In this document: piece after piece, positions 61 through 21,706 of the stretch
Layout of the letters: each line of letters opens with the position of its first letter
Position numbering within the stretch: the stretch's first letter is position 1
DNA from: a bacterium
GTDB lineage: Bacteria; Zhuqueibacterota; Zhuqueibacteria; Oceanimicrobiales; Oceanimicrobiaceae
DNA length: 40,043 nt
Direction: 5' to 3'
NCBI GenBank assembly: GCA_037446635.1
Contig: JBBIIG010000017.1
Span: forward strand, 32,835-72,877
Made by a program: the position numbers and the translations under genes
The notes under the pieces: generated by a model
What the model saw: the letters and a program-made list of their open reading frames with translations, nothing else
What the model was told of the DNA's origin: nothing
Database searches by the model: none

Positions 61-1353
61 TTACCAATATTTGCGCTCCTTGGCAAATTGCTCCAATTCT
101 CCTCGGAAATCCGGGTGCGCAATTTGAATAAGCGCCTCGGCGCGTTCGCGCAGGCTTTTGCCGTGCAGATAGGCGATGCCGTATTCGGTTACGATGTAGT
201 GAACATCGCCACGGCTGGTGACTACGCCCGCCCCTTCCTTCAAATGCGAAACGATGCGGGAAACCCGCCCGTTCTTGGCCGTGGCTGGCAATGCGATGAT
301 GGGCTTGCCGCGTTTGGCGCGCGCCGCCCCGCGGATGAAATCCACCTGGCCGCCGAAGCCGGAATAAATCGTGTAGCCGATGGAGTCCGAACACACTTGG
401 CCGGTGAGATCCACTTCCACGGCGGAGTTGATGGCGACGATGCCTTCGTTTTGCGCGACCACAAATGGATCGTTGGTGTAATCAACCTGATGCAGTTCAA
501 AAAGCGGGTTGTTGTGGATGTAATCGTATAGTCTGCGGCTGCCCAAAACAAATGTAGCGATCACTTTGCCCGGATGCAAGCTTTTGCGCGCGTTGGTGAC
601 GATGCCGGCCTCCACCGCTTCCATCACGCCGTCGGATACCATTTCGGTGTGAATGCCGAGGTCTTTGCGGTCGCGCAAAAGCGACAGCACCGCGTCCGGG
701 ATGCCGCCGATTCCCAATTGCAGAGTCGCGCCGTCTTCGATGAGCGTCATAATATTTTCGGCGATGCGGGTTTCGACCGTGCTGGCCGGCTTGGGGTTGA
801 GCGTGGGCAGCTCTTCGGAAACCTCGACAATTTTGGCAATGCGCGACACGTGCAGAAAGCAGTCGCCTAACGCGCGCGGCATTTTTTCATTCACCTGCGC
901 GATGACCATCTTCGCGGTTTCCGCGGCGGCTTTGGTGGCGGCGGTTTCCACGCCGAACGAGACGAAGCCATGATCGTCCGGCGGCGAGGTTTGAATCAGC
1001 GCGGCGTCGAGCTGCACTTGCTCGCGGAAGAGGCGGGGGATTTCGTAAAGAAAAATCGGAAAATAATCGGCGCGGCCGTCGTTCACGGCCTGACGGTCGG
1101 CGGGTCCCACAAACAGCGATTTGTGCCGGAAGTGGCCGTCCATTTCCGGGCGCGACAGCGGGTCGTCCCCCATCAATAAAAGATGATAGACTTCGACGGC
1201 TTTTAGTTCGTCTTTGCGTTTGGCGAGCGCATTCAAAAGTACGTATGGCGTGGCAGCGTTGCCGGAGCTGAAAATTTTGTCGCCACTTTTGATGATCGAA
1301 ACCGCCTCATCTGCTGAAACCCGTTTGCTTTTATAATCTTCCATCCATTTCAT
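61..1353 (-). CDS. Acetyl-CoA hydrolase/transferase family protein (4-hydroxybutyrate CoA-transferase-like)
   Basis: 430 aa; motifs TLQLGIGGIP, LGIHTEM (catalytic Glu), INSAVEVDLTGQV, SGFGGQVDF, VTEYGIA; AGGAG RBS upstream. Confidence 0.9.
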   Translation of the reverse strand: MKWMEDYKSKRVSADEAVSIIKSGDKIFSSGNAATPYVLLNALAKRKDELKAVEVYHLLLMGDDPLSRPEMDGHFRHKSLFVGPADRQAVNDGRADYFPIFLYEIPRLFREQVQLDAALIQTSPPDDHGFVSFGVETAATKAAAETAKMVIAQVNEKMPRALGDCFLHVSRIAKIVEVSEELPTLNPKPASTVETRIAENIMTLIEDGATLQLGIGGIPDAVLSLLRDRKDLGIHTEMVSDGVMEAVEAGIVTNARKSLHPGKVIATFVLGSRRLYDYIHNNPLFELHQVDYTNDPFVVAQNEGIVAINSAVEVDLTGQVCSDSIGYTIYSGFGGQVDFIRGAARAKRGKPIIALPATAKNGRVSRIVSHLKEGAGVVTSRGDVHYIVTEYGIAYLHGKSLRERAEALIQIAHPDFRGELEQFAKERKYW

Positions 1354-4069: not shown

Positions 4070-4098
4070 TTGACATTTAAGTTAAATTATTTTATTGT
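4070..4098 (+). promoter_or_regulatory. Sigma70-type promoter of the hydrolase/ligase/TBDR cluster
   Basis: TTGACA (4070-4075), 17 bp spacer, TATTGT (4093-4098). Confidence 0.65.
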
Positions 4099-4105
4099 TG
4101 GTTAA

Positions 4106-4139
4106 AATCGAATAAACGGAAAAATCAGTTTTTTCGATT
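4106..4139. promoter_or_regulatory. Inverted repeat, candidate repressor operator
   Basis: AATCGAATAAACGGA-AAAA-TCAGTTTTTTCGATT, 13/15 matching arms, directly after the -10 box. Confidence 0.55.
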
Positions 4140-4170: not shown

Positions 4171-5037
4171 ATGAACTTCCTTTTGATCGTATCTGTAGTG
4201 ATCTCATTGATGATAACGGTCGCAGTTCTGCCTCAAACACCCGTTAGCGGAAAAGTTAACGCCAATGGCGTTCAACTGTATTACGAAATCCACGGCCGCG
4301 GCCCGCATTTAATTTTGATCGAGGGTTTAGGCGTGGCCACCTGGCTGTGGGAGAAACAAGTCCCGGATTTTTCCAATCATTTTACGACGGTGGTGTACGA
4401 CAATCGCGGCGCCGGCGAGTCGGACAAGCCGCCGGGGCCCTACTCCATTTCGATGATGGCCGACGATCTCGCCGCATTGATGGATTCTCTGAAAATTGCG
4501 AAAGCCCACATTCTCGGCGCCTCCATGGGCGGCTTCATCGCCCAGGATTTTGCGCTGCGCTATCCGCACAAAGTGGACAAGCTGGTTCTGGTTTGCACCA
4601 GCGCCGGCGGCCCGGATCACGTGCCCATGTCGCAGGAGGCGCTGGCGATGTTCTTTTATAATGAAGGCTCGCCGCGCGACATCGTCCGCAAAAAACTCGC
4701 GCTTGCCTATTCCGAAAGCTTTATGCAAAATTCGGAGATGGTCGAGCATTTGATTGATTTGCGATTAAACAACCCGCAGCCGCCGCACGCTTACCTGGCG
4801 CAAATCGCCGCGGGCGCCGCGTTCAATCTCTCCGAGCAAGTGCAAAATATTTCGGCGCCCACGCTCATCCTGGCGGCTGAAAACGACTTGCTGGTGCCGG
4901 TCGCGAATGCTCATAATCTCGTTAAAAAAATTTCCAAGAGTCAGCTCAAAATTTACGAAGGGCTCGGCCATCAATTTTTCGTGGAGCGCCCGCAGCCCTT
5001 CAACCAAGACATCATCGATTTTCTTAAACCCGAATAA
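4171..5037 (+). CDS. Alpha/beta hydrolase (enol-lactonase/PhaZ-like) with N-terminal signal or anchor
   Basis: GASMGG nucleophile elbow, ENDLLVP Asp, GLGHQFF His, DNRGAGES; hydrophobic first ~20 aa. Confidence 0.85.
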   Translation: MNFLLIVSVVISLMITVAVLPQTPVSGKVNANGVQLYYEIHGRGPHLILIEGLGVATWLWEKQVPDFSNHFTTVVYDNRGAGESDKPPGPYSISMMADDLAALMDSLKIAKAHILGASMGGFIAQDFALRYPHKVDKLVLVCTSAGGPDHVPMSQEALAMFFYNEGSPRDIVRKKLALAYSESFMQNSEMVEHLIDLRLNNPQPPHAYLAQIAAGAAFNLSEQVQNISAPTLILAAENDLLVPVANAHNLVKKISKSQLKIYEGLGHQFFVERPQPFNQDIIDFLKPE

Positions 5038-5056
5038 AAAGGGAGAATGATCAAAA

Positions 5057-5596
5057 ATGGATGCCATTCGGCAGGCGATCATCAACGACTTTGGCCGCGG
5101 CTATTTGAAGTTTGGCCACAGCGAGCTTTTAGGGCGCGTAGTGGGACTGTTGATTTGCGCCTCCGAACCGTTGACAGAAGAGCAGATCAGCGAACAGCTC
5201 AATGTCAGCAAAAGTCCGGTCAATCAAATCACCACCCGGCTGGAGGAGCTGAATTTGGTGCGGCGGGTGCGCATCAAAGGCGACCGCAAATTTTATTATC
5301 AAATTTCGCCGGATGTTTTTTTGCAAGCGGCTATAAATTTGTCGCGGCTTTTCGAAGACAATTTGCAAGTCGCGGAAAGCCATTTGGAGCCGCTGCTGAA
5401 AAAGTATTCCAAGTCCAACGCCAAAGAAAAAGTGCGGCTGCGCCCCGTGGTGGAGCGCATCATTGCGATGCGCGAATTCCACTTGCGGGAAATCGCCGCT
5501 TACAAAAAACTTTTGGAGGAGTGGCAGACCGCCAAACTCAAACTGCCCACCATCGAGGAATATCTCTCGAAGTGGTTGATCAAGCGCGCGTCGTGA
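5057..5596 (+). CDS. GbsR/MarR-family transcriptional regulator
   Basis: 179 aa; GRVVGLLI..PLTEEQISEQLNVSKSPVN winged HTH, wing GDRKFYY. Confidence 0.85.
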   Translation: MDAIRQAIINDFGRGYLKFGHSELLGRVVGLLICASEPLTEEQISEQLNVSKSPVNQITTRLEELNLVRRVRIKGDRKFYYQISPDVFLQAAINLSRLFEDNLQVAESHLEPLLKKYSKSNAKEKVRLRPVVERIIAMREFHLREIAAYKKLLEEWQTAKLKLPTIEEYLSKWLIKRAS

Positions 5597-5615
5597 AATC
5601 GCGATGATCGTCCTC

Positions 5616-5777
5616 CTCGTTCCCACGTTCCCACGCTGGAGCGTGGGAACGAGAGTGAGGGAGTCGCGTGGGAACGAGAGTGAGGGAGTCGCGGGGGAAC
5701 GAGAGTCGACGCGCGTCTTGAAATTGATGATCGATGATCGATGGCTCCGTCTGCCTTCTGCCATTTGACATTTCACG
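5616..5777. repeat. CTCGTTCCCACGC-type REP hairpin, 25-nt tandem repeat and heptamer run
   Basis: Hairpin 5616-5653; GCGTGGGAACGAGAGTGAGGGAGTC x2.7 (5641-5707); TCGATGA-type and TCTGCCA-type heptamers (5724-5777). Confidence 0.85.
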
Positions 5778-5793
5778 TTACCGGAGATAACCC

Positions 5794-6537
5794 ATGAGAT
5801 TAAAAGATAAAGTCGCCATCATCACCGGCGCGGGCAGCGGCATTGGCCGCGCAACGGCGTTGACTTTCGCTCGTGAAGGCGCGAGCGTGGTGGCGGCCGA
5901 AATTAACGAGGATGCCGGCAAGAAAGTCGTGGCTGAGATTGAACAGCTTGGCGGCGCAGCGCGATTTGAACGGGTGAACGTGGCTGAAGTGGGCGACGTG
6001 ACTCGGATGGTGCAAAACACGGTGACGGCTTTTGGGAAAATCGATGTTTTGATCAACAACGCCGGCATCGTCGTCGATGCCCGGCTGGTGAACATGACCC
6101 TCGAGCAGTGGCAGCGGGTCATCGATGTCAACCTCAAAGGCGTATTTCTTTGCGGGCAGGCGGTCGCCCGCGTGATGGAAGCCCAGCCCAGCGGCGGTGT
6201 GATTTTGAACGCCTCTTCGGTGGTGGGACTCTACGGCAATTTTGGCCAGAGCAACTACGTCGCCACCAAAGCCGGGGTGATCGGCATGACCAAAACCTGG
6301 GCGCGAGAATTGGGAAAGAAAAACATTCGTGTGAACGCGGTGGCGCCGGGCTTCATTGCCACGGAAATTCTGAAAACCATTCCGGAAAAAATCATCAGCA
6401 TGATGGTAGAGAAAACGCCGCTGGGCCGCATGGGCAAACCGGAAGATATTGCCAATGCCTATCTGTTTCTGGCGTCGGATGAAGCGGCGTTCATCACCGG
6501 CGCGGTGCTGTCGGTGGATGGCGGCCTTGTGGTTTAA
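5794..6537 (+). CDS. fabG: SDR, 3-oxoacyl-CoA/ACP reductase (FabG/PhaB-like)
   Basis: TGAGSGIG, NNAGI, NASS, GNFGQSNYVATK (YxxxK), VNAVAPGFI, VDGG. Confidence 0.8.
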   Translation: MRLKDKVAIITGAGSGIGRATALTFAREGASVVAAEINEDAGKKVVAEIEQLGGAARFERVNVAEVGDVTRMVQNTVTAFGKIDVLINNAGIVVDARLVNMTLEQWQRVIDVNLKGVFLCGQAVARVMEAQPSGGVILNASSVVGLYGNFGQSNYVATKAGVIGMTKTWARELGKKNIRVNAVAPGFIATEILKTIPEKIISMMVEKTPLGRMGKPEDIANAYLFLASDEAAFITGAVLSVDGGLVV

Positions 6538-6549
6538 AGGAGTAATCGC

Positions 6550-6582
6550 AACTCTGACGGGGTTTTAAACCCTGTCAGAGTT
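6550..6582. repeat. 33-bp palindrome (16-bp arms)
   Basis: AACTCTGACGGGGTTT-T-AAACCCTGTCAGAGTT, one mismatch. Confidence 0.9.
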
Positions 6583-6592
6583 TTAAAAGACT

Positions 6593-7459
6593 ATGAACAA
6601 CCTGATCCCAGTAAACGGAATCCATCTTTACGTGGAACGGCTTGGCAAAGGCGAGCCGGTGCTGCTCATCCCCGGATTGGGTGCGGGCGCGTGGCTGTGG
6701 TTCAAAACCGCGCCGGCGCTGTCCAAACATTTTTCAGTGATTATGCCGGAGCTGCGCGGCGGCGGGCGGTCCGATAAACCCGACCACCGTTACTCCGTGC
6801 CGCTGTTCGCAAACGATTTGAGGGAATTGCTGGAAAATCAAAATATCAAAAATGCCCACGTCATCGGGGTTTCCCTGGGCGGATTCATTGCGCAATTTAT
6901 GGCAGCGACCTGGCCGGAATTAGTGGGGGCGCTGGTGCTGGTAGCCACGTCTCTCGGCGGCGACGGCCAGCTCGGTCCCGCCGGCGAAGTCCTCTGCCGC
7001 ACCATTCGTCCGCGCGGAAAAACCCGCCAGGAACGTCTCGAAGATTCCTATTCGCTCAACTTTTCGCAGGCTTACCGGACAAGTCATCCAGAAGAGCTGC
7101 AACGCATCACCGAGTGGCGCACGCAATTTCCGCAGCCGGAGTTCGCGTACTACCGACAGTTGCTCGCGGGTTACGCTTTTGATGGCACGCAATTGGTCAA
7201 AAGAATTTCCGCGCCGACGCTTATCGCCGCGGGAAAGGACGACCCATTCGTGCCGTTGGATGATACTCTGACACTTAAAAACAATCTCGGCCATTCGGAA
7301 TTCGAACTCTTCGACGGCCGGCACCTTTTCTTTTTCGAGCACAGCAAAAAGTTTAATCAGCTTGTCATTGAGTTTTTGCAGAAACATCCCATTTCGGGCA
7401 ACTCAGCGGGGATGGTTCAACAAGTGGAAAATCAGCCTGAGCGTCAAGCTGAAGCTTGA
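6593..7459 (+). CDS. Alpha/beta hydrolase (cytoplasmic paralogue)
   Basis: GVSLGG, GKDDPFVP, GRHLFF; no signal peptide; visibly homologous to 4171-5037. Confidence 0.85.
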   Translation: MNNLIPVNGIHLYVERLGKGEPVLLIPGLGAGAWLWFKTAPALSKHFSVIMPELRGGGRSDKPDHRYSVPLFANDLRELLENQNIKNAHVIGVSLGGFIAQFMAATWPELVGALVLVATSLGGDGQLGPAGEVLCRTIRPRGKTRQERLEDSYSLNFSQAYRTSHPEELQRITEWRTQFPQPEFAYYRQLLAGYAFDGTQLVKRISAPTLIAAGKDDPFVPLDDTLTLKNNLGHSEFELFDGRHLFFFEHSKKFNQLVIEFLQKHPISGNSAGMVQQVENQPERQAEA

Positions 7460-7480
7460 CACTCCTAACATTCAGAGGTG

Positions 7481-8983
7481 ATGATGTACATTGGCGACTA
7501 TCTCGCGCGGCGATGCGTTTATTCCCCCGACGCCCTGGCTTTGATCGATATCGGATCGCAGCCGGCTCAGCGGCTGACGTATCGGCAGCTCAATGGGCGC
7601 GCCAACCAGTTGGCCAACTGGCTGCGGGACAAGGGAATTACAAAGGACGAACGCGTGGCAATGTTAGCGCTCGACGGCGTGGAATTTTACGACGCCTTTT
7701 TCGCCTGCAGCAAACTCGGCGCGATCTTCACCCCGCTCAACTGGCGGCTGCACCCGCGCGAAATCGAAAATCAAATTCGCCTCACCTCGCCTAAAATCCT
7801 GCTGCACAGTTTCGAGCCGCCCATTGATGAAATCGTCAACCATCTCGGCGCCATCAAAAATTTTCCGGAGTTCATCGATCTAAACATTCTCGAAAGTATT
7901 TATCAAAAAACTTCCGCCGACCCCGTAACCTGCGAGCCCCTCACCGAGCGCGACACCGCCTGTTTGCTGTTCACCGGCGGCACCACTGGCCAGGCGAAGG
8001 CGGCGCAAATCAGCCACGGCCAAATCGTGTGGAACACCTTCAACGCGCTGCTGGCAGACGTGTTGGGCAGCGACACATTTTTAAATATTTTCCCGATGTT
8101 CCACACCGGCGGGCTCTTTGCCTTTTCCGTCCCGATTTTGATTTTGGGCGGCAGGGTGATTCAAACCAAAAAATTTGACGCCGAGCAAATTCTCGAAACC
8201 ATCGAAAAAGAAAAGGTGACCATCTTCGGCGGCGTGCCGACGATTTTCCAGATGTTGACTGCCGCGCCGAATTGGGAGAAGGCGAACCTTCGCTCGCTGC
8301 GCTACTGTCTCAGCGGCGGCGCGCCCATGCCCATCGCCCTCATTCAAAAATTTCAGAAAGAAAAAGGAGTGGTCTTCCGGCAGGGGTTTGGGATGACGGA
8401 ATTCGGGCCAGACGTTTTTTCGTTGGCCAGCGCCGACGCCGAGCGCAAAATGGGTTCGATTGGCAAGCCCAACTTTTTTGTCGATGCCCGAATCGTCGAT
8501 CCACAAACCAACGAGCCGCTGCCTGCAAACAAAATTGGCGAGCTGGTTTTGCGGGGGCCGTCCGCAACCACCGGCTACTTCAACAATCCGGAGGCCACCC
8601 GCGCCGCGTTCGATTCCGAAAACTTTTTTCACACCGGCGATCTTGCTTACGTGGATGAGGAGGGTTACTTCTTCATCGTCGATCGACTTAAAGACATGTT
8701 CATTAGCGGCGGGGAGAATGTTTATCCCGCGGAAGTGGAAGCGGTGTTGTACCAGCACCCGGCGGTGGCGTTGTGCGCGGTGATCGGCGTTCCCGAGCCG
8801 AAATGGGGCGAAGTTGGAAAAGTGTTTGTGGTGCTCGAAAAAGGAAAGAAACTCACTGAAACGGAGGTGCTGAACTTTTTGCGTCAGCGGCTGGCGAAAT
8901 ATAAAATCCCGCAGTCGGTTGTGTTTGTGGAGTCCCTGCCGAAAACCGCTATCGGCAAAGTGGACAAAAAAGCGTTGACGTAA
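7481..8983 (+). CDS. Acyl-CoA synthetase (AMP-forming, FadD/MenE-like) 1
   Basis: FTGGTTGQAK, GFGMTE, HTGDL, DRLKDMFISGGENVYPAEVE, LPKTAIGK; start 7478/7481/7484 uncertain. Confidence 0.9.
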   Translation: MMYIGDYLARRCVYSPDALALIDIGSQPAQRLTYRQLNGRANQLANWLRDKGITKDERVAMLALDGVEFYDAFFACSKLGAIFTPLNWRLHPREIENQIRLTSPKILLHSFEPPIDEIVNHLGAIKNFPEFIDLNILESIYQKTSADPVTCEPLTERDTACLLFTGGTTGQAKAAQISHGQIVWNTFNALLADVLGSDTFLNIFPMFHTGGLFAFSVPILILGGRVIQTKKFDAEQILETIEKEKVTIFGGVPTIFQMLTAAPNWEKANLRSLRYCLSGGAPMPIALIQKFQKEKGVVFRQGFGMTEFGPDVFSLASADAERKMGSIGKPNFFVDARIVDPQTNEPLPANKIGELVLRGPSATTGYFNNPEATRAAFDSENFFHTGDLAYVDEEGYFFIVDRLKDMFISGGENVYPAEVEAVLYQHPAVALCAVIGVPEPKWGEVGKVFVVLEKGKKLTETEVLNFLRQRLAKYKIPQSVVFVESLPKTAIGKVDKKALT

Positions 8984-9074
8984 CGCAAAGCTCTGCTTTG
9001 CGGCACGTAACGCAAACCTCTGGTTTGCCTGCTTGCGCAGGCAGGCGGCTCTCAAAGTGGAGCTTTGAGTTACA
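8980..9074. repeat. GTAAC-type REP cluster with an inserted mini-palindrome
   Basis: GTAACGCAAAGCTCTGCTTTGC (8980), GTAACGCAAACCTCTGGTTTGC (9007), inverted copy 9049-9073; GCCTGCTTGCGCAGGCAGGC at 9027-9046. Confidence 0.8.
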
Positions 9075-9154
9075 ATTCGGAAAAACCATGTATCATCTGA
9101 ATTATGATTTTGAAAATTCGCGGTCGCAAGATCGCGCGCCGCCCTGAATTTCAG

Positions 9155-9187
9155 ACGTTTACTAAACTTTAAAAGTTTAGTAAACGT
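9155..9187. repeat. 33-bp perfect palindrome (16-bp arms)
   Basis: ACGTTTACTAAACTTT-A-AAAGTTTAGTAAACGT. Confidence 0.9.
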
Positions 9188-9232
9188 GGCTCACACTCAA
9201 TCCACAACTCAAACCAAATGGAGGAAAAAATC

Positions 9233-11719
9233 ATGTTGAGGAAGATCTTGTATGCAGCGCTGCTCACGGTCATGCTGGTCAATCTGGCCATGGCCGAAGG
9301 CGGAACCATCAAAGGCGTTGTCAAAGACAAAGAGACCGGCCAGGCGATGGCTGGCGCCAACGTATTTTTAAAAGGGACCAACTACGGCTCGTCCACCAAT
9401 ATCCGCGGCGAATACGCGATTACAAACGTGCCGCCGGGCAATTACACCTTCGTGGTGACCTACATCGGCTACGCGCAGTTCTCGCAGGCGCTCGCGTTCG
9501 ACAACGCCGCGGAAATGACGCTGGATGTTGAAATGATCAAAACCGATTTGATGAGCGAGCAGGTGGTGGTGACCGCTTCCAAAGCGGCGGAGAAAATCAC
9601 CGAAGCGCCCGCCACCATCAACGTCATCAGCGCGCGCCAAATTGCCGAGCATCCTTCGGCCAACGTCGGCGAGCTGCTGGCGTATGAAAAAGGCGTGGAT
9701 TACGTGCGCACCGGCGTGCTGGGCACCGGCATCAACATCCGCGGCTTCAACAGCGCGTTCAACATCAAAAATCTGCAAATGAACGACACCCGGCTTTCAA
9801 CCCTCATCGCCACCAGTCTGCCGTTAGGCGCGCTGGGCACCACCGTGAAAGAAGATATCGAGCGCATCGAAGTGATTTTAGGTCCGAACGCCGCGCTCTA
9901 CGGCCCCAATGCGCACAACGGCCTGGTGAACACCCTCACCAAAGATCCGCGCACCTCGGAGGAAACCACGGTGGTGGCCAGCGGCGGCAACCACAGCGCC
10001 TTCAGCGGACGCTTCCGCCAGGCCAAAGTGGTCAACGAGTGGTTCCGCTACAAAGTCACCGGCGCCTATTTGCGCGGCGAAGAGTTCGACTACGTGGACT
10101 CCGTTTACGTTGGAACCGCCGCGTTTGAGGAAGTCGGCCTCGACCGCGATTTCGATTCCATTCACGGCGAGGCTTCGTTTTATCTCAGCCCGAACCAGGA
10201 TTCCGATTTCATTTTGACTTACGGCGGCAGCAACAGCAACAACATCGGCGTCACCAACGCCGGCCGCAACCTGATCGTTGACTGGCGCATTCATTTCCTG
10301 CAGGGACGATATGTCTCGCCGCGATTCTTTGCGCAGGTCTATCACACCTGGAGCAAAACCGATGACACCTTCGCCATGAATCAGCGCACCCAAAATTATC
10401 TGACTTACATCAACGCCAGAGATGCGCAAGGAAATCGTCTTTTCAGTGACGAAGAAGCCTTGTCTCGCTCCCTGCATACCGCCTGGTTTGCTCCCCTGGG
10501 TGTGCATCTCAATCGCGAGGCCAATTTCGTGGATGACTCCCGCCGCTGGAACGCCGAGGCGCAGTACAACAACACCTGGGAAGGATTCCAGATGGTAGGC
10601 GGTGTGCAAGTGCAGCGGGACATCGCGAACAGCCACCAAACGTATTTGCTGGATCGGGAAGGCGCCATCGAGCTGGATCAATGGGGAGTGTATGCACAGG
10701 TGGAGAAACCGCTGGGCGAATCCGGCGTCGAGATCATCGGCGCGGTACGCGGCGATGATCACGAGCTGTACGGCTTCAACGTCATTCCCAAAGGCGGGCT
10801 GCTGTATCACACCGGCAGCAACAACTTCCGCGTGACGTACGGCAAAGGAATTTCCGCGCCCAGCATTTTGAATTTGAGCGCGAATATTTTTGGCGGCTTG
10901 CTCTTGGGCAACGGCGAAGGCTTCACCCTGAGCGATGGCACGGAAATCCCGAAGTTAGAGGTGGAAACCATTCACACCATCGAAGGCGGCTACAAAGGCA
11001 TCGTGGCGGATAAGCTGTACATCGACACCAACGCTTATTACAACTTCCACGAAAACTTCATCAGCCCGACCATCAACATTGCCACTCAGGGCCGGACGGT
11101 CACCCACCGCGGCGGCGTCCCCATGCAGGAAGTTATCCCCGGCACGCCGGCGGCCGGTTCCGCGTTTGTTCTAACTTATTTAAACTTTGGCAAAGTGAAC
11201 ACCTACGGATTCGATCTCGGGCTGAATTACTTAGTAAACAGCAACGTCAACCTGCGGCTGAACTATTCGTTCTTTGATTTCGATCTCGACACCGACGACC
11301 CCCAAAACGACGGCAACCGCAACGGCGTCGTGGATGAAAACGATTTGCCCATCAACACGCCAAAGCACAAGCTCAATGCGTCCGTGAATGCCAATCGCGG
11401 CAATTGGTTTGGCACGCTGGGCGCGCGGTGGGTCGATGAGTACGATTTCTTCTCCGGCATCAACGTGGCGGCGAAAACCAACACCAGTTTGATTTACAAC
11501 GGTTCGCCGGTGGTTGAGGGGCAGCGCGTCGGCCGCGACTTCAATGAGGGCCCGCTGGGCGGATACGTCAACATCGACATCGGCCTCGGCTATCGCATCA
11601 ATCGCAATATCGCGATCTCGGGACAACTGATCAACGTGTTCGATTCTGAGGTGCGGGATTTCGTGGCCTCGCCGTCCATCGGGCGGCTGTTCTCCACGGA
11701 GTTGAAATTCACGTTGTAA
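9233..11719 (+). CDS. TonB-dependent receptor with N-terminal carboxypeptidase-regulatory-like domain
   Basis: Signal peptide ending AMA; GTIKGVVKDKETGQ..GANV; TonB box QVVVTASK; plug INIRGF, IERIEVILGPNAALYG; barrel ending GR..ELKFTL; GGAGG RBS favours ATG 9233. Confidence 0.9.
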   Translation: MLRKILYAALLTVMLVNLAMAEGGTIKGVVKDKETGQAMAGANVFLKGTNYGSSTNIRGEYAITNVPPGNYTFVVTYIGYAQFSQALAFDNAAEMTLDVEMIKTDLMSEQVVVTASKAAEKITEAPATINVISARQIAEHPSANVGELLAYEKGVDYVRTGVLGTGINIRGFNSAFNIKNLQMNDTRLSTLIATSLPLGALGTTVKEDIERIEVILGPNAALYGPNAHNGLVNTLTKDPRTSEETTVVASGGNHSAFSGRFRQAKVVNEWFRYKVTGAYLRGEEFDYVDSVYVGTAAFEEVGLDRDFDSIHGEASFYLSPNQDSDFILTYGGSNSNNIGVTNAGRNLIVDWRIHFLQGRYVSPRFFAQVYHTWSKTDDTFAMNQRTQNYLTYINARDAQGNRLFSDEEALSRSLHTAWFAPLGVHLNREANFVDDSRRWNAEAQYNNTWEGFQMVGGVQVQRDIANSHQTYLLDREGAIELDQWGVYAQVEKPLGESGVEIIGAVRGDDHELYGFNVIPKGGLLYHTGSNNFRVTYGKGISAPSILNLSANIFGGLLLGNGEGFTLSDGTEIPKLEVETIHTIEGGYKGIVADKLYIDTNAYYNFHENFISPTINIATQGRTVTHRGGVPMQEVIPGTPAAGSAFVLTYLNFGKVNTYGFDLGLNYLVNSNVNLRLNYSFFDFDLDTDDPQNDGNRNGVVDENDLPINTPKHKLNASVNANRGNWFGTLGARWVDEYDFFSGINVAAKTNTSLIYNGSPVVEGQRVGRDFNEGPLGGYVNIDIGLGYRINRNIAISGQLINVFDSEVRDFVASPSIGRLFSTELKFTL

Positions 11720-11795
11720 TCTGCGAATCTGAAATCCCTCTTGGGAGGGGGCCAACGCCCGGTCGGAAAATGGGTGAAGTGCAGAGGCGATTGTT

Positions 11796-12060
11796 CCTCC
11801 CCCATTTTCGGTTTTTGAAAATGGGGGAGGTGAGGAGGGGGTCGGTTGGATCGATGATCGATAATCAATGATTGACAATTCACAATTGACCATTCACAAT
11901 TCACCATTCACCATTCACCATTCCCGTTGTGCGCCAGCTAATGGTGAACGGTGAACGACTAATTGTGAATTGCCAATTATTCAATCATAATCATCGATCA
12001 TCGATTCACAAGACCCCTCCCGGCCTCCCCCAAATTCCAAAGGGCGGAATTTGGGGGAGG
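11796..12060. repeat. Nested fold-back element: purine-rich hairpins enclosing inverted heptamer arrays
   Basis: 14-bp hairpin 11796-11830 and 15-bp hairpin 12024-12060; between them TCGATGA, TTCACAA and TTCACCA heptamers mirrored by their reverse complements. Confidence 0.85.
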
Positions 12061-12123
12061 TGTTTACTTTACTCACACGATCCAATTTCCGACCGGGCTT
12101 CAATTTGATCTATCTGTAATATC

Positions 12124-13191
12124 ATGAAAGCAAAACAAATTTCAACAGAGTTGCAAGTTGGCATTGTCAGCGCCGGCATGTATTTGCCGGAGACGTTCAT
12201 GACCGCCGCGGAGATCGCAGAACAAAGCGGCTTGCCGGAATGGGTGGTGCGCGAGAAGTTAGGCATCACTAAAAAATACGTCGCCGGGCCGGGGGATCAT
12301 CCCAACGAGATGGCCATCCGCGCGGCGAAAGACTGTCTCGCGAAATGCAATGTGCCGCCGGAGGAGATCGACGTCGTCCTCTGCACCACTGAAGAATGGA
12401 AAGAATATCTACTGTGGACGGCCGGCATTCATCTGGCGCACGAAATTGGCGCGCGCAACGCCTGGGCAATGGATCTGCACATGCGCTGCTGCACCACCAT
12501 CGCCGCCATCAAACTGGCGAAGGACATGATGCTGGCGAACGATGACATCAACACGGTGCTCATTGCCGGCGGCTACGGCGTCAGCCAATTCATCAATCTA
12601 AAAAATCAGCGCACGTCGTTTATGTTCAACATCGGCGCCGGCGCGGGCGCGCTGCTGCTGCGCAAAAACTGGCCGCGCAACCACGTGCTGGGCTGCCACC
12701 TCATCACCGACGGCTCGATGAGCAAGCACGTGATTGTCCCCGCCAGCGGCACCGTGCAGCACCCCACGGACGAGGCCGTCGCGGCCGGCCAATTCTATTT
12801 TGATCTCAAGGAACCCGAGGCGATGAAAACTCGGCTCAACGACGTCTCCATGAAAAATTGGCTGCGCTGCATCGATGCGGCGCTGCACAAGAGCGGCCGC
12901 AAATCCGACGGTTCTTCTTTCACTCGAAAAGATATCGGCTATTTGAATATGATTTTGGTGAAGCCCTCCGCCCACCGCGAAATGCTGAATCATCTCGGGC
13001 TGACGGAAGTGCAATCGGTTTACTTGAGTGACTACGGCCACATTGGCGAGCAGGACAGCATCATCTCCATCATCGAAGGCGAAAAACAGGGCCGGCTGAA
13101 AGACGGCGATTTAATGATGATGGTGGCCGCGGGGATCGGGTATGTCTGGGGAGCAGCGGTGGTGCGATGGGGGGAAGTGCGTGAGGCGTAG
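12124..13191 (+). CDS. 3-oxoacyl-ACP synthase III (FabH)-like thiolase-fold enzyme, non-canonical triad
   Basis: DLHMRC (Cys122), GAGAGALLL, YGHIG, AAGIGYVWGAAVVRW; no HQAN or GNTS motif. Confidence 0.8.
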   Translation: MKAKQISTELQVGIVSAGMYLPETFMTAAEIAEQSGLPEWVVREKLGITKKYVAGPGDHPNEMAIRAAKDCLAKCNVPPEEIDVVLCTTEEWKEYLLWTAGIHLAHEIGARNAWAMDLHMRCCTTIAAIKLAKDMMLANDDINTVLIAGGYGVSQFINLKNQRTSFMFNIGAGAGALLLRKNWPRNHVLGCHLITDGSMSKHVIVPASGTVQHPTDEAVAAGQFYFDLKEPEAMKTRLNDVSMKNWLRCIDAALHKSGRKSDGSSFTRKDIGYLNMILVKPSAHREMLNHLGLTEVQSVYLSDYGHIGEQDSIISIIEGEKQGRLKDGDLMMMVAAGIGYVWGAAVVRWGEVREA

Positions 13192-13212
13192 AGCGAAGAG
13201 CGTGAATGCTAG

Positions 13213-13396
13213 TGGAGTGTTGGAGTAGTGGAGTAGTGGAGTAGTGGAGTACTGGATTAGTGGATTGTTTCTCGCTCCCACGCTCGGCGTGGGAGCGAAA
13301 CCGGAGACGCTCTGCGCCAACCCCCTCGTTCCCACGCAGAGCGGGGGAACGAGAAGGCTCACTTTTAGGCTCATCGATCCAGTACTCCATCACTCC
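13213..13396. repeat. (TGGAGTAG)n octamers and inverted partner enclosing a REP doublet
   Basis: Seven octamer units 13213-13268; REP hairpins 13271-13298 and 13325-13353; ATCCAGTACTCCA (13377-13389) is the exact reverse complement of 13245-13257. Confidence 0.85.
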
Positions 13397-13417
13397 TCTT
13401 TCAATTTACACAGAATC

Positions 13418-14971
13418 ATGGATAACAAACTTAACCGCGAACTTCCACAAAAGTCGGAATTCGTCACCGATTGGCTAGATAAGCGCGCGAAGCTAACCCC
13501 GGATCGCATTGCACTCGAAGACGCGATCACCGGCGAAACCATCACGTTCCGCGAGTGGAATGGCCGCGCCAATCGCACCGCCAACTTTTTGCGCAGCCTC
13601 GGCGTGAAGACCGGTGACCTCGTTTCCGTTTATGCCAGCAACTGCAGCGCGTACCTCGACATCTTTTTTGCGTGCGGGAAAATCGGCGCGATTCTCCACA
13701 ATCTCAACTGGCGGCTGGCCGTGTTCGAGCTGCAAAACATCTTGGCCGACGCCCAACCGAAATTTTTGATCTATTCACCAGAATGGCGCGAGCAGGTGAA
13801 CGCCCTCCGCTCCACGCTCCCGGCGTCGCGCTTCGTTGCCATCGGAGATCGAGCGCTTGAAAACGACACGGATTTTTCCGAACGCTCCCATCACTCCGAC
13901 CAACTAAGCGAACGCCCGGATTTAACACTGGATCACCCGTGGGGAATCTACTACACCGGCGGCACCACCGGCATCCCCAAAGGCGCCATCCTCACCCACG
14001 GCAACATGACCTGGAACAGCATCAACACCGTGATGAGTTGGGGCGTCACCGCCGAAGATTGTGCGCTGCTGCAGCTTCCCTTTTTTCACATTGGCGGGCC
14101 AAACATTTTCATGCTGCCGCTGGTGCACGTGGGCGGCAAAACCATTCTCTGCCGCCAGTTCGACGTCGAGCAAACGTTCGATTTCATTGAGCGCGGCGAC
14201 ATCACCCACTTCGTGGGCGTGCCGACGATGTTCATCATGATGCAGCAGCACCCGCGCTGGCCGGCCACGGACTTTTCCCGGCTGAAATTGGTGATCAGCG
14301 GCGGCGCCCCCTGTCCCTTGCCGGTGATGCAAAAATTCTGGGACAAAGGCGTGGATTTCAAAATGGGCTACGGACTCACCGAAGCTTCGGGCAACAACTT
14401 CTGGCTGCCGCAAGCGGATGTGCGGCGAAAAATCGGTTCGGTCGGTTTCCCGATTTTTCACATCGATATGAAAATCGTCCGCGAAGACGGCAGCGCGTGC
14501 GCCGCGAACGAAGCGGGCGAGCTGCTCATTCGTGGGCCGCACGTCACGCCGGGCTACTGGAACCGGCCCGAGGAAACTGCGGCCATCCTCAAAAACGGCT
14601 GGCTGCACACCGGCGATTTGGCGAAACAGGATGACGAAGGCTATTTTTATATCATCGGGCGCAGCAAAGATATGTTCATCAGCGGCGGCGAAAATGTTTA
14701 TCCTGCCGAAGTGGAAAGCGCGATCTTTGCGCATCCCGCGGTGGCGGAGGCCGCAGTGATTGGCGCGCCCCACGAAAAATGGGGCGAAGTGGGAAAAGCG
14801 TTTGTGGTGATCGAAAAAGAAAAGAAGCTCACGGAATCCGAGCTGCTGGAATTTTTGCGGCAGCGGCTGGCGAGATACAAAATCCCGCAGTCGGTGGTGT
14901 TTTTGGAGTCGCTGCCGAAAACCGCCATCGGCAAAGTGGACAAAAAGGCGTTAACGGAAATGAAGGGATGA
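13418..14971 (+). CDS. Acyl-CoA synthetase (AMP-forming) 2
   Basis: YTGGTTGIPKG, GYGLTE, WLHTGDL, GRSKDMFISGGENVYPAEVE; start moved to ATG 13418 because the upstream in-frame part is repeat DNA. Confidence 0.9.
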   Translation: MDNKLNRELPQKSEFVTDWLDKRAKLTPDRIALEDAITGETITFREWNGRANRTANFLRSLGVKTGDLVSVYASNCSAYLDIFFACGKIGAILHNLNWRLAVFELQNILADAQPKFLIYSPEWREQVNALRSTLPASRFVAIGDRALENDTDFSERSHHSDQLSERPDLTLDHPWGIYYTGGTTGIPKGAILTHGNMTWNSINTVMSWGVTAEDCALLQLPFFHIGGPNIFMLPLVHVGGKTILCRQFDVEQTFDFIERGDITHFVGVPTMFIMMQQHPRWPATDFSRLKLVISGGAPCPLPVMQKFWDKGVDFKMGYGLTEASGNNFWLPQADVRRKIGSVGFPIFHIDMKIVREDGSACAANEAGELLIRGPHVTPGYWNRPEETAAILKNGWLHTGDLAKQDDEGYFYIIGRSKDMFISGGENVYPAEVESAIFAHPAVAEAAVIGAPHEKWGEVGKAFVVIEKEKKLTESELLEFLRQRLARYKIPQSVVFLESLPKTAIGKVDKKALTEMKG

Positions 14972-15094
14972 ATGTTTTGATCAAACACAGTTTGTAACTG
15001 TGTTTTTGAGATGTTTTGGATTCATAAGCAAACACCTTTACAAACGGTGTTAGATCGAAAACATGCAGCTCTCAAAGCGGAGCTTTGAGTTACA
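14972..15094. repeat. Long imperfect inverted repeat followed by GTAAC-type REP
   Basis: TGTTTTGATCAAACACAGTTTGTAA pairs with TTACAAACGGTGTTAGATCGAAAACA; 15068-15094 matches 9048-9074 at 26/27 nt. Confidence 0.75.
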
Positions 15095-15109
15095 TTCCAA
15101 AAAATTGAC

Positions 15110-16618
15110 ATGATTTTAGCCTGGACACTCTTTCTGATTTACATGCTCGGAACCGCCTATCTCGGCTGGCTGGGATACAAGCGCACCAAAAATTTTGACA
15201 GCTTTGCCATCGGCAGCGGCGATATGCCGCCGTGGGTGGTGGGCATCACGCTGGCGGCGAGCGTGGCCTCGGCGGCGACGTTCATTATCAACCCGGGATT
15301 TATTTACGTGCACGGGCTTTCCGCTTTCATGCACTTTGTGGTTGCCGTGGGCTGCGGTTTCTGTTTGATGCTGGTGCTGCTGTCATTCCGCTTCCGGCAG
15401 TTGGGAGAGTCGAACAAAGCGCTCACCATGCCGCACTGGATCGGCAAGCGGTTTCAATCGCGGGGCATCGCGCTCTATTTTGCCGTGGTGAATTTATTTG
15501 CGCTGGCATTCGTGGTGCTCATCGCCGGCGGCCTGTCAATTGTGATGCAGCAGTTGCTGGGGATTTCCAACGTGGCTGCGCTCATCATCATTTTGGGATT
15601 TGTCACCGGCTATATTTTCATTGGCGGGACTTACGCCCACGCCTTCACCAACACCCTGCAAGGCTCGCTGATGCTGATCGTGTCGCTGGTGATTATCATT
15701 TCGGGGCTCAAATTATTTCTTCCCAACTCGCCCGGCTTTTTCGAGCGATTGGCGGCGCAGGATGCCAACCTGGTGGCGTGGGTCAACCCGGCCAGCGATT
15801 TGTACAACAGCGTCTTCTCTATTTACGTTAGTGGATTTATCATTGGCGCGGCGCTGGTGTGCCAGCCGCACATTCTCACCAAAGCGCTCTACGTCAAAAG
15901 CGACCGCGCGGTGCGGAATTATCTCATCATCGCCGTCGGCGCGCTGGTGATTTTCTTTCTGCTGCCCGTCGCTGGTTTTTATGCCCGCCTGACTTTGCCG
16001 CCGGCGCAAATCGTGGATGCCGCCACCGGCGTCTTCCGCCAGGATTTGGTGATGACGATGTACCTCAAATCCGCGTTTCCGGAGTGGACGTTCACGTTTA
16101 TCAGCATCGTGCTGCTGGCGGCCGGCATGTCCACCCTCGACGGCATCCTGGTGTCGCTGTCAACCATCAGCGCCAACGATCTGATATTGAACTTAATTGA
16201 TCGTTTCAGCCGAGTCCAGCGCAGCGAGCCGCAACGGCTTACTCTGGCCTACAAATTAAGTCACGTGATTTTAATTGGAATCGCCGCCGCGGCGTTTATT
16301 ATTTGCTTGAACCCACCGCGGCTGTTAGGGATTTTCGGACAGGTGGGGGTGTACGGAATGGCGGTAGCCGCCGCGCCTCCCCTGTTAGGCGGGATTTTGT
16401 TTCGGAACATTTCCCGCAATCTGGTTTGGCTGTCGTCCTTCGTGGGGCTAACCGCTCATTTCATTCTCTATTTTTACGGCGCGCGCCTTTTTCCGAATTC
16501 GGAACTCGCCTTTGCCAATCCCGGCGTCACCGCGACTCTGGCAATTATCGTCTCGCTGCTGCCGGCGCTGCTCGCCGCCGGGCTGCGGCAGCGCGCACGA
16601 ACGGCTTCCCACCGCTAA
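15110..16618 (+). CDS. Sodium:solute symporter (SSS) family protein
   Basis: 502 aa, about 13 hydrophobic segments; ASVASAATFI, YIFIGG..TNTLQG, QPHI, LLAAGMSTLDG. Confidence 0.85.
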   Translation: MILAWTLFLIYMLGTAYLGWLGYKRTKNFDSFAIGSGDMPPWVVGITLAASVASAATFIINPGFIYVHGLSAFMHFVVAVGCGFCLMLVLLSFRFRQLGESNKALTMPHWIGKRFQSRGIALYFAVVNLFALAFVVLIAGGLSIVMQQLLGISNVAALIIILGFVTGYIFIGGTYAHAFTNTLQGSLMLIVSLVIIISGLKLFLPNSPGFFERLAAQDANLVAWVNPASDLYNSVFSIYVSGFIIGAALVCQPHILTKALYVKSDRAVRNYLIIAVGALVIFFLLPVAGFYARLTLPPAQIVDAATGVFRQDLVMTMYLKSAFPEWTFTFISIVLLAAGMSTLDGILVSLSTISANDLILNLIDRFSRVQRSEPQRLTLAYKLSHVILIGIAAAAFIICLNPPRLLGIFGQVGVYGMAVAAAPPLLGGILFRNISRNLVWLSSFVGLTAHFILYFYGARLFPNSELAFANPGVTATLAIIVSLLPALLAAGLRQRARTASHR

Positions 16619-16755: not shown

Positions 16756-17322
16756 ATGCTCAAACTAACTTTTCAACCAGTTACCCAAAAAAACTGGAAA
16801 GATTTCGAAAAACTGTTCGGCCCCAGAGGCGCGTGCGCCGGCTGCTGGTGCATGTTCTGGCGGCAGACGCGGTCGGAGTTCGACAAACTCAAGGGAGATG
16901 GCAACAAGCGCGCCATGAAAAAAATTGTTGACTCTGGTGAGATTCCCGGAATTTTGGCGTATCACAACGGCGAGCCGATTGGCTGGTGCGCGGTGGCGCC
17001 GCGGGAACGCTTCTCGGCGCTGGAACGCACGCGGGTGGCGAAGCGAATCGACGAGCAGCCGGTGTGGTCGGCGCCGTGTTTCTTCGTTCACAAAAATTTT
17101 CGCAAACAGGGCGTGACCGTGCAACTCCTGCGCGCGGCCATTGATTTCGTCAAAAAAAATGGCGGCAAAATTTTGGAAGGATATCCGGTTGAAGCTAAGA
17201 AAGAGATGCCGCCGGTGTTCGCTTATTACGGGACGGCGTCGGCGTTTCGGCAGGCCGGTTTTGTGGAATGCGCTCGGCGTTCGGAGACGCGGCCGTTCAT
17301 GCGGTTTATAATCGATAAGTGA
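16756..17322 (+). CDS. GNAT family N-acetyltransferase
   Basis: CAGCWCMFWR, PIGWCAVAP, CFFVHKNFRKQGV (motif A), LEGYP, FRQAGF. Confidence 0.85.
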   Translation: MLKLTFQPVTQKNWKDFEKLFGPRGACAGCWCMFWRQTRSEFDKLKGDGNKRAMKKIVDSGEIPGILAYHNGEPIGWCAVAPRERFSALERTRVAKRIDEQPVWSAPCFFVHKNFRKQGVTVQLLRAAIDFVKKNGGKILEGYPVEAKKEMPPVFAYYGTASAFRQAGFVECARRSETRPFMRFIIDK

Positions 17323-20243: not shown

Positions 20244-20561
20244 GTGGCAAATCCAATCATCACCATCACAGGCTGTACACCGGATAAATATTCGGTGCGC
20301 ACCAATCGCGGCGGAGCGGTGGTTTTCAAATCTGGCGACGGCCAGGTGTATTACGTCGATTTCGGGAACAATGATCCAACCATTTCCAGCCAATCTTTTC
20401 CGATTCAGGTGCCGGCAAATGGGTCCGCGCCATTGAACCTCAAAGACTCAACGCCCGCCAGCACCTATCCATTCAGAATTCTCGACGCCAATCGCAACCA
20501 ATGCTGCCCGCAAGTGGACGCGGGCCCGGGCGAAGAGGCCCCTGTGGTGATCGTGGACTAA
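20244..20561 (+). CDS. Hypothetical small beta-rich protein
   Basis: 105 aa, GGAGG RBS before GTG, alternating beta-strand pattern, no signal peptide. Confidence 0.7.
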   Translation: MANPIITITGCTPDKYSVRTNRGGAVVFKSGDGQVYYVDFGNNDPTISSQSFPIQVPANGSAPLNLKDSTPASTYPFRILDANRNQCCPQVDAGPGEEAPVVIVD

Positions 20562-20692
20562 TTCGGCGCTGCCTTCGGAGGCGTTCATCTTCACAAGACG
20601 GTGGTTTCGAAGCGCAGAACGCATCGTGCACAGCGGAAGGTTTCGGCTGTGCGCCATGCGCTCTGCGCTATGCTTTTAAAGGAAGAATAAAA

Positions 20693-21706
20693 ATGTCAAA
20701 GAAAATATTCGCCGCCGCTCTGCTCATTTCGCTGCCAGTGATGTTCGGGCTCCGCAGCTTTCAGGAGTCAGACCGCAAAGTCATTCTGGAGGTACCGTTG
20801 ATGAAACAGCAAACCAAAATGTGGTGTTGGGCGGCTTCAGCGCAAATGATCATGACTTACATGGGCAAACCGATCACCCAGTGCGAGCAGGCCGATATCC
20901 AACTTAAGAAAACCGATTGCTGCGCCGATTCGATTCCAACGTATTGCATCAAAGGCGGCTGGCCGCAATTTTATCGCTACGGCTTCACCAGCGACAGCGT
21001 CGATGCGGCGCTGTCGTGGGAGCAGCTCAAGGCGCAGATCGACCGGAACCAGCCGGTGGTGTTTTCGTGGCGCTGGTCGCTGGGCGGCGGCCACATGATG
21101 GTGGCGACTGGCTACGCCGAACCCAATTGGGTTTATGTCAACAACCCCTTTCCGCCGCAGGGCGAAGCCAGCCTGCCGCAGGGCGATTATCAAGCCATCA
21201 CCTATGAGGAATTTGTTAGCAGCCAGAATCACAGCCACTGGCGGGATTATTACAATATCCAGCCCAAGCCCGAACCCGAGCCGCAGCCGCCTCCGCGTAC
21301 GATAACGCGCGCCGCTCCTCCTGAAAACCGACCCGAGGCGCAAATCGAGGTGGCGGAAGTGACCACTGCCGCCACCTCGGGTGGAGTGGCGGATCGCGCC
21401 GAAGCATTTGTTTCTTACGACAAAGCGCCGGAACCCATTGGCGGTTTTGCTGCCATTCAGCGGGCGCTCAAGTATCCGCAGAATGCACGCGAGGCCGGCT
21501 GGGAAGGGCGGGCGGTGATTAACGTGCTGGTCAACAAAGAGGGCGAAGCCGCTGACACGAAAGTGCTGCAATCTTCCGGTCATCCAAGTTTGGACGAGGC
21601 CGCCATTGAAGCCATCAAAAGCACCAAGTGGCGGCCGGCGCTGCAGCGCGAAACTCCCGTGGCAGTTTGGGTGGCGATTCCGGTCAATTTTCAGGTTCGC
21701 AGGTAG
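20693..21706 (+). CDS. Exported papain-like (C39/C70-like) cysteine protease fused to TonB C-terminal domain
   Basis: Signal-like N-terminus; QQTKMWCWAAS, GGGHMMVATG, YVNNP; linker PKPEPEPQPPP; YPQNAREAGWEG..SSGHPSLDEAAIEAI..W.PA..IPVNF; start ATG 20693. Confidence 0.8.
   Translation: MSKKIFAAALLISLPVMFGLRSFQESDRKVILEVPLMKQQTKMWCWAASAQMIMTYMGKPITQCEQADIQLKKTDCCADSIPTYCIKGGWPQFYRYGFTSDSVDAALSWEQLKAQIDRNQPVVFSWRWSLGGGHMMVATGYAEPNWVYVNNPFPPQGEASLPQGDYQAITYEEFVSSQNHSHWRDYYNIQPKPEPEPQPPPRTITRAAPPENRPEAQIEVAEVTTAATSGGVADRAEAFVSYDKAPEPIGGFAAIQRALKYPQNAREAGWEGRAVINVLVNKEGEAADTKVLQSSGHPSLDEAAIEAIKSTKWRPALQRETPVAVWVAIPVNFQVRR

Follow-up and report, generated by a model that had tools for sequence, protein, structure and literature searches.

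A conserved operon with a KAS III-fold enzyme as a candidate route for uptake and CoA activation of (R)-3-hydroxybutyrate esters

Which substrate is served by an operon that joins a TonB-dependent outer-membrane receptor and a sodium symporter to two esterases, two coenzyme A (CoA) ligases, a short-chain dehydrogenase/reductase (SDR) and a protein with the fold of 3-oxoacyl-ACP synthase III (KAS III; ACP, acyl carrier protein)? The question is raised by nine genes, a regulator among them, in a stretch of 40,043 nucleotides (positions 32,835 to 72,877 of contig JBBIIG010000017.1, assembly GCA_037446635.1), hereafter the window. A preliminary description, made from the letters alone, had proposed uptake and catabolism of hydroxyacyl esters, with oligomers of polyhydroxyalkanoate (PHA) as the hypothesis. 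In the answer that we favour with moderate confidence, substrates and reactions all being inferred, this conserved operon would import (R)-3-hydroxybutyrate (3HB) esters, that is oligomers of poly-3-hydroxybutyrate (PHB) from other cells, and convert them into CoA thioesters for oxidation.

The substrate is indicated by genes found inside related operons. Indeed, in five of the 12 metagenome loci of the TonB receptor the operon includes phaE and a class III phaC, beside orthologues of the window enzymes (56-82% identity) in differing gene orders. The four complete PhaC copies score 465-492 bits against a cut-off of 365, PhaE passes Pfam PF09712 and the PhaC proteins are mutually 75-85% identical. 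In the Anaerolineae loci L064, L134 and L135, class I and class III phaC genes are located directly upstream of the KAS III-like gene, which belongs to family PRK06840, and the L064 PhaC is just 32% identical to the PhaC of the metagenome phaEC loci; a divergent phaC is also found near the KAS III-like gene in L027. Furthermore, among 13 Anaerolineae PRK06840 loci inspected, of 35 matches, five operons contain a 3-hydroxybutyrate dehydrogenase gene, bdhA (TIGR01963, 334-349 bits vs 307), and in the two of these that were checked the ligase is 55% identical to the second ligase of the window.

A sister module that has no KAS III-like gene shares the binding-protein family of a LIV-type ATP-binding cassette (ABC) importer found in related operons and, in Ralstonia, the TetR and ligase families as well. 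This module holds a 3HB-oligomer hydrolase (3HBOH; PF10605, 981 bits), a ligase and MaoC in Ralstonia (L111), and bdhA in Mariluticola (L106). The LIV binding-protein family gave nine matches in a plasmid collection, six of which were inspected besides the query's own record: bdhA was found in one (Mariluticola), ligase, MaoC and 3HBOH together in one (Ralstonia), ligase and MaoC in three, and no marker in one. Moreover, operons of Bacillus (L091) and haloarchaea (L093 and L094) that lack the SDR contain a MaoC hydratase gene; MaoC and SDR thus alternate across taxa, as expected for (R)-3-hydroxyacyl-CoA. This recruitment of phaEC, phaC, bdhA, 3HBOH and MaoC points to the (R)-3-hydroxybutyryl-CoA node, and because it has occurred repeatedly, in four settings at the least, the substrate is most likely an (R)-3-hydroxyacyl compound, 3-hydroxybutyrate esters in particular, so that the PHA-oligomer idea gains support.

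Gene content, conservation and regulation

ORF calling (ORF, open reading frame), Pfam and NCBIfam confirmed nine intact plus-strand ORFs between 4171 and 16618, all of the classes given in the preliminary description: two alpha/beta hydrolases, a MarR-like regulator, an SDR, two AMP-forming CoA ligases, a TonB-dependent receptor, a KAS III-fold protein and a sodium:solute symporter. The catalytic motifs of the hydrolases, ligases and SDR are undamaged. The features of the locus are the following.

4070..4098, plus strand: sigma70-type promoter, TTGACA-17-TATTGT; TTGACA is upstream of the first gene in 8/8 related loci listed
4109..4136, no strand assigned: palindromic operator of 10-8-10 bp, closely following the -10 box
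4171..5037, plus strand: alpha/beta hydrolase 1, hydrophobic N-terminal leader, predicted exported; Ser118-Asp239-His267
5057..5596, plus strand: GbsR/MarR-type winged-helix (helix-turn-helix) regulator, TrmB/MarR in Pfam; homologues in 10/80 loci
5794..6537, plus strand: FabG-like SDR, predicted (R)-3-hydroxyacyl-CoA dehydrogenase; NAD(H) signature Glu36, YxxxK at 155
6593..7459, plus strand: alpha/beta hydrolase 2, no leader, cytoplasmic; Ser94-Asp217-His244
7478..8983, plus strand: acyl-CoA ligase 1, likely start 7484; C-terminal end like that of ligase 2
9218..11719, plus strand: TonB-dependent receptor with N-terminal CarboxypepD_reg domain; likely start 9233
12124..13191, plus strand: KAS III-fold protein, family PRK06840/NF005308, predicted acyltransferase; Cys122-His306-Asp311
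13418..14971, plus strand: acyl-CoA ligase 2, NF004837 long-chain type, barely above cut-off
15110..16618, plus strand: sodium:solute symporter (SSF); a major facilitator superfamily (MFS) permease takes its place in several relatives

The name GbsR is a label that we presume for the regulator, Pfam giving TrmB/MarR. The likely starts of ligase 1 and of the receptor are ATG 7484 and ATG 9233, while ligase 2 most likely starts at ATG 13418, because an extension to GTG 13244 crosses a genome-wide repeat; the corresponding 575-aa form was dropped for this reason. A GNAT gene at 16756 was likewise dropped as an operon member since it has no match across the 80 loci surveyed. None of the nine genes encodes an ACP, an acyl-CoA dehydrogenase or an enoyl-CoA hydratase. 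This absence had been remarked on before; it is real but says little, because acyl-CoA dehydrogenase homologues (6 tblastn matches) and four thiolases above cut-off are present elsewhere in the genome.

The survey comprised the 80 best genome loci of the KAS III-like gene out of 186 confirmed, many of them on short contigs. The same genes recur in related loci at 52-83% identity with their order mostly kept, and by this recurrence the nine-gene grouping exceeds chance. The closest loci are in records labelled KSB1, Calditrichaceae, Cytophagia or "bacterium". A neighbourhood search on the KAS III-like gene had been proposed in order to see whether the enzymes are conserved while the transporters vary, and this is the pattern observed: the enzyme core is kept across several phyla, and the importer is a TonB receptor with a sodium symporter or MFS permease here and a LIV-type ABC system elsewhere. 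A related ligase is found in 68/80 loci, the SDR in 37/80, the hydrolase-1 type in 25/80 and a third hydrolase type in 33/80, compared to 15/80 for the TonB receptor, 11/80 for the symporter and 26/80 for the LIV-type binding protein; a second KAS III-like family (14/80), an archaeal-type thiolase (9/80), acyl-CoA dehydrogenase (8/80), MaoC (4/80) and PhaC (2/80) complete the count. The KAS III-like gene itself is carried by 19 of 167 genomes of the host phylum and by 34 of 201 in an Anaerolineae sample, and the remoter PRK06840 members of Bacillus, Brevibacillus and haloarchaea have in their neighbourhood a ligase, MaoC, a hydrolase and/or a LIV importer. Among cultured organisms, Chondrinema litorale (L112) has the SDR, the second KAS III-like family, symporter, ligase, hydrolase and a receptor of 48% identity.

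Several other proteins accompany these operons. In Bacillus the PRK06840 gene is separated from the LIV importer by the gene of an NHL-repeat protein (L091:11008-12873), and in Brevibacillus an unannotated ORF about as large as the NHL-repeat gene (L114:13018-14919) follows the PRK06840 gene. A CoA-transferase fused to a periplasmic-binding-protein domain is found at L078:5903-8359, with similar ORFs of ~816 aa in L064 and L071. A recurrent secreted-looking protein of 515-564 aa with no Pfam match (L057:7422-8999, L051:1135-2829 and L125:11064-12611), which is possibly an unrecognised outer-membrane channel, is present in three operons, in two of which no TonB receptor homologue was found.

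Promoter and palindrome together point to a single, locally repressed operon, and the palindrome at 4109-4136 is likely the site of the GbsR/MarR-type repressor. With a matrix built from seven related promoters, the window site being left out, the window operator is the top match of the 4.64 Mb genome at 25.4 bits, the runner-up reaching 18.0; the operator is also found in L128 (20.9 bits), and a further 11 scanned loci show it weakly or not at all. No second strong site was found in the genome with this leave-one-out matrix, and therefore no regulon offers a clue to the substrate. The longer intergenic gaps hold short repeats that recur across 9 to 39 genome contigs, and in several relatives the gaps between genes are shorter. 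REP-like palindromes and short tandem repeats occupy 5597-5793, 6538-6592, 8984-9217, 11720-12123, 13192-13417 and 14972-15109, with 12-110 blastn matches elsewhere in the genome. The nested repeat set at 11720-12123 includes a terminator-like hairpin of 16 pairs (12023-12061), which might reduce read-through into the three genes that follow it.

Outside the operon, an acetyl-CoA hydrolase/transferase gene, probably an incidental neighbour, is located on the opposite strand 2.8 kb upstream (61-1353, minus strand); its product is 41% identical to a CoA-transferase domain inside some Chloroflexota operons. At 20501-21706 (plus strand) a papain-like C39/C70 peptidase domain is fused to a TonB C-terminal domain.

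The KAS III-fold enzyme and its partner enzymes

The KAS III-like protein passes NF005308/PRK06840 with 444.6 bits against a cut-off of 315, and its AlphaFold model (pLDDT 89.9) has the FabH fold (Z 38.1, rmsd 2.1, 310 residues aligned to 8vd9). Its active site differs from that of FabH. In the alignment of orthologues Cys122, His306 and Asp311, and also Lys280, are kept in 80/80, the position of FabH His244 is taken by Ile277 (Leu, Ile or Val in 80/80) and that of FabH Asn274 by His306, while the FabH of the host has Cys, His and Asn at the columns of Cys122, Ile277 and His306. Hence the protein lacks the Cys-His-Asn triad, and it stays below the FabH family cut-off (TIGR00747, 107 vs 292); what it has is Cys-His-Asp with Asp five residues after His, the arrangement of the CerJ/ChlB3 type. 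In the available part of PMC9573744, these KAS III-fold acyltransferases have the triad Cys113-His296-Asp301, with the same spacing as in the window enzyme. Because this triad and spacing are found in 80/80 orthologues, the enzyme most likely transfers acyl groups between heteroatoms. Kinship to CerJ is not proven by this: similarity to CerJ (E 2.9e-11) and ChlB3 (E 2e-8) is weak, FabH entries rank higher by sequence and structure, and neither protein is among the matches listed in the structure searches. An Atlas search returned KAS III clusters only.

A Cys-His-His triad was ruled out given that His278 occurs in only 12/80 orthologues, the position being Leu in 68/80. The beta-lactone pathway OleABCD was also rejected: OleA, which we take to be a Cys-His-Asn condensing enzyme, would call for the FabH-type His/Asn pair, which is absent here, and importers are constant partners of the locus. 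The second KAS III-like family (L030:3749-4747 and L112:7045-8034, for example), which accompanies or replaces the PRK06840 gene, has Cys, Thr and Tyr at the three FabH catalytic positions in 15/15 rows. In L017 (8267-11038) and L030 (7687-10562) the genes for an archaeal-type thiolase, a DUF35-like protein and PRK06840 are consecutive, an arrangement that resembles the thiolase/DUF35/HMG-CoA synthase and PhlABC complexes; the thiolase and DUF35 pair is absent from the host genome.

The SDR appears to be of the NAD(H) type. It has Glu36 at the end of beta2, where Asp or Glu is found in 35/36 aligned rows, and the YxxxK motif, while the FabG of the host ACP cluster (contig C87) has Ala-Thr-Thr in the same stretch. 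NAD use fits an oxidative role according to the established rule for SDRs. The top three PDB matches are 4NBW, 4NBU and 4NBV (E 1e-80 to 8e-75); the accessible text of PMC5264612 refers to 4NBU as FabG with NAD bound. The protein stays below the PhaB family cut-off (TIGR01829, 226 vs 302), and (R) specificity on CoA esters is predicted from its FabG-like sequence and from the MaoC and PhaC neighbours.

A quick tree places the two ligases in distinct clades with good support, both of which include orthologues from other phyla, and a third clade comprises KSB1, Acidimicrobiia, Chloroflexota, Ralstonia and alphaproteobacterial sequences (SH-aLRT 99-100). The C-terminal domains of ligase 1 (8630-8983) and ligase 2 (14606-14959) share 80% identity compared to 40% for the N-terminal parts, ligase 1 terminates in a ligase-2 type motif, and the C-terminal domains of orthologous pairs in four relatives are 44-60% identical; gene conversion in this lineage is the likely origin of the end of ligase 1. 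Hydrolase 1, whose orthologues likewise carry hydrophobic leaders, has PcaD as its best NCBIfam match (159 bits vs 256) and Est1 8v16 and 6eb3 as closest PDB entries. The 3HB-oligomer hydrolase PF10605 gave no Pfam match in any window protein.

Proposed pathway and competing explanations

In the proposed route, oligomers would enter the periplasm through the TonB receptor, be trimmed by the exported esterase and, as monomer or short oligomers, be carried into the cell by the sodium symporter. The two paralogous ligases, probably differing in chain preference, would then form CoA esters. Ester bonds could next be hydrolysed by the cytoplasmic esterase and/or be acted on by the KAS III-fold enzyme, which would use Cys122 to pass an ester-linked 3-hydroxybutyryl group to CoA, in effect running CerJ chemistry backwards. 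This ester thiolysis would save one ATP-to-AMP activation per bond. The NAD-type SDR would finally oxidise (R)-3-hydroxyacyl-CoA to 3-oxoacyl-CoA, and thiolases encoded elsewhere would yield acetyl-CoA. For the CoA-dependent thiolysis of oligomer-CoA by the KAS III-fold enzyme our belief is tentative, somewhat short of an even chance. There is precedent for CoA-dependent thiolysis of PHB to 3HB-CoA by PhaZ1, according to the available portions of PMC3430594 and PMC7147478. We regard as rather unlikely the full picture of a polyester utilisation locus, in which cells that store no PHB capture the oligomers of others by TonB and PRK06840 is an "ester thiolase" that splits oligomer-CoA with CoA into 3-hydroxybutyryl-CoA, with the energy of the ester bond kept.

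In the host genome, which is 97% complete, no PHA synthase (PhaC or PhaE) was found, nor bdhA, a PF10503 depolymerase or MaoC above cut-off, and the host would therefore be a scavenger of soluble fragments, for which the CoA/SDR route appears to be the only visible exit for (R)-3HB.

A number of observations weigh against 3HB esters as the substrate. The same absence of PF10503, bdhA and MaoC suggests that the host could not attack the PHB polymer by any known family, and 3HBOH was not found either, in a search without a responding positive control. The window hydrolases fall below the PHA-depolymerase cut-offs (NF050089, 85 and 66 vs 300; TIGR02240, 80 and 90 vs 251), and by far the best PDB match of the ligases is the feruloyl-CoA synthetase 8WEV (E 1e-113 to 1e-119). 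The markers themselves are unevenly distributed: most carriers of the KAS III-like gene have no 3HB or PHA marker gene, 18/39 long loci have no SDR, MaoC, bdhA or PhaC in the stretch covered, class III PhaC is found in 0/167 genomes of the host phylum though 19 hold the KAS III-like gene, and PhaC occurs in only 3/34 Anaerolineae carriers, where co-occurrence is uninformative (3/8 PhaC genomes among 34/201 carriers). The five phaEC contigs come from one sample and may go back to a single acquisition event, close kinship (88-99% alike) links four of the five bdhA loci, the module does not stand beside four other 3HBOH genes that were checked, and PHA synthases could be recruited to any hydroxyacyl-CoA source. 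Transfer from ester to thioester is, in addition, energetically uphill and requires a downstream pull.

The explanation that best survives beside 3HB esters, though we consider it unlikely, is that longer (R)-3-hydroxyacyl esters from the lipids of dead cells are the substrate, the KAS III-fold enzyme shifting the piggy-back acyl chain onto CoA. Candidate sources would be acyloxyacyl pieces of lipid A or of ornithine/glycine lipids, the rhamnolipid precursor HAA or medium-chain PHA. Such a substrate is consistent with ligases that group with long-chain and aryl types, ligase 2 passing NF004837, with the maintenance of two paralogous ligase clades side by side, with a TonB receptor, which implies a bulky or scarce solute, and with the lack of a known PHB depolymerase in the host; it is at odds with bdhA, class III PhaEC and 3HBOH, which are short-chain 3HB enzymes by family definition, and with the absence of acyl-CoA dehydrogenase from 72/80 loci.

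We find it quite improbable that the KAS III-fold enzyme is a non-canonical thiolase, acting on the same substrate and cleaving 3-oxoacyl-CoA so that the operon would be self-sufficient. The thiolase fold, the Cys nucleophile and a GH motif speak for it, as does the absence of an archaeal-type thiolase near 71/80 loci, the window included. Nonetheless the Asp five residues after His is invariant, as in the CerJ/ChlB3 acyltransferases, Ala335/Ala336 stand where we presume the second, acid/base Cys of thiolases to lie, with no second Cys present, and the degradative thiolase family TIGR01930 gave no match to the protein at E 1e-10. Moreover, a separate thiolase accompanies the gene in 9/80 loci and the host has four of its own, so the enzyme is probably not the thiolase that cleaves the C-C bond. 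The preliminary description had held that the gene set suffices from import to C-C cleavage: an importer-linked catabolic locus was correctly seen, and the SDR is of the NAD(H) type, but the thiolase-fold enzyme has an acyltransferase triad, and therefore the set alone would stop short of acetyl-CoA and host thiolases would finish the route.

Aromatic esters, with uptake of feruloyl or other hydroxycinnamate esters, CoA activation and beta-oxidative shortening of the side chain, are possible in view of 8WEV being the top PDB match of both ligases, and the related binding proteins belong to the LIV class, which in Rhodopseudomonas palustris binds aromatic and fatty acids (PMC3223731, in part). 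We give this option a very low probability, given that the annotated loci contain no ring-cleavage or hydratase/lyase gene and that the markers recruited are 3HB genes. Least probable of all is a biosynthetic locus, in which the ligases activate imported acids and a CerJ-like enzyme acylates a signal or lipid acceptor or feeds PHA synthesis: CerJ and ChlB3 do act in the synthetic direction (PMC9573744, available part) and phaEC is embedded in some relatives, but dedicated importers and two esterases are constant companions, the locus has no exporter, ACP or tailoring gene, class III PhaC is found in 0/19 carriers of the phylum, and no support was found for the acylated signal offered earlier as an alternative.

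Relation to known systems

That no characterised locus of this composition was known, as stated in the preliminary description, agrees with our literature search, in which subscription titles were mostly outside coverage: no description was found of the function of PRK06840 or of this operon, the Bacillus cluster included. Among the papers listed, neither TonB import combined with CoA activation of soluble PHB oligomers nor, for the neighbours of phaY1 in Ralstonia eutropha, any mention of H16_A2252 was found, and the portions available of PMC7236355, PMC4908106, PMC4823750 and PMC3734047 give no operon context for the locus. The locus is an uncharacterised variant of importer-linked CoA catabolism with a testable substrate and a candidate new enzyme reaction. 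The TonB/symporter form, the operator and the phaEC genes embedded in close relatives are new here.

Many bacteria store carbon as PHB, which is also sold as a bioplastic. Of the components that the operon supplies, the receptor, the symporter, both ligases and the regulator with its defined operator can all be tested directly. If the proposed route is true, PRK06840 would gain its first function; in bacteria and archaea this family carries the annotation of a fatty-acid synthase, though its aligned members lack the condensing residues. CerJ-type chemistry would then serve catabolism as well, and cross-feeding would be a hidden part of the turnover of natural and bioplastic PHB. If the enzyme thiolyses esters, polyester fragments would be recycled into CoA esters with a saving of ATP.

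Among known families, the window protein passes the cut-off of PRK06840/NF005308 ("3-oxoacyl-ACP synthase"), whose members in Bacillus, Brevibacillus, haloarchaea and Chloroflexota adjoin a ligase, a hydrolase, MaoC and/or a LIV importer; its own subfamily differs in mostly lacking the His278 found in the Bacillus and haloarchaeal members and in being coupled to a TonB receptor and a sodium symporter. With CerJ and ChlB3 it shares the KAS III fold, the Cys nucleophile, His at the FabH Asn274 position, Asp at +5 and a hydrophobic residue at the FabH His244 position, but sequence similarity is weak and the context is catabolic, with no ACP or polyketide genes near the window gene. The SDR resembles the NADH-dependent FabG group (4NBW, 4NBU and 4NBV), its top PDB matches, in the acidic residue that ends beta2, and it is a gene separate from the fatty-acid FabG of the host. 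In comparison with PHB mobilisation (PhaY/3HBOH, BdhA, PhaJ and thiolysis by PhaZ1), such families have been recruited into homologous operons, whereas none of them is present in the window, where the hydrolases are PcaD/Est1-like and under every cut-off. Finally, the pimFABCDE operon of R. palustris with its ABC binding proteins, as presented in the available part of PMC3223731, likewise combines an importer, a CoA ligase, an oxidoreductase and a local regulator; the window locus differs from it in having no acyl-CoA dehydrogenase, hydratase or canonical thiolase and in possessing two esterases and a Cys-His-Asp enzyme of the KAS III fold.

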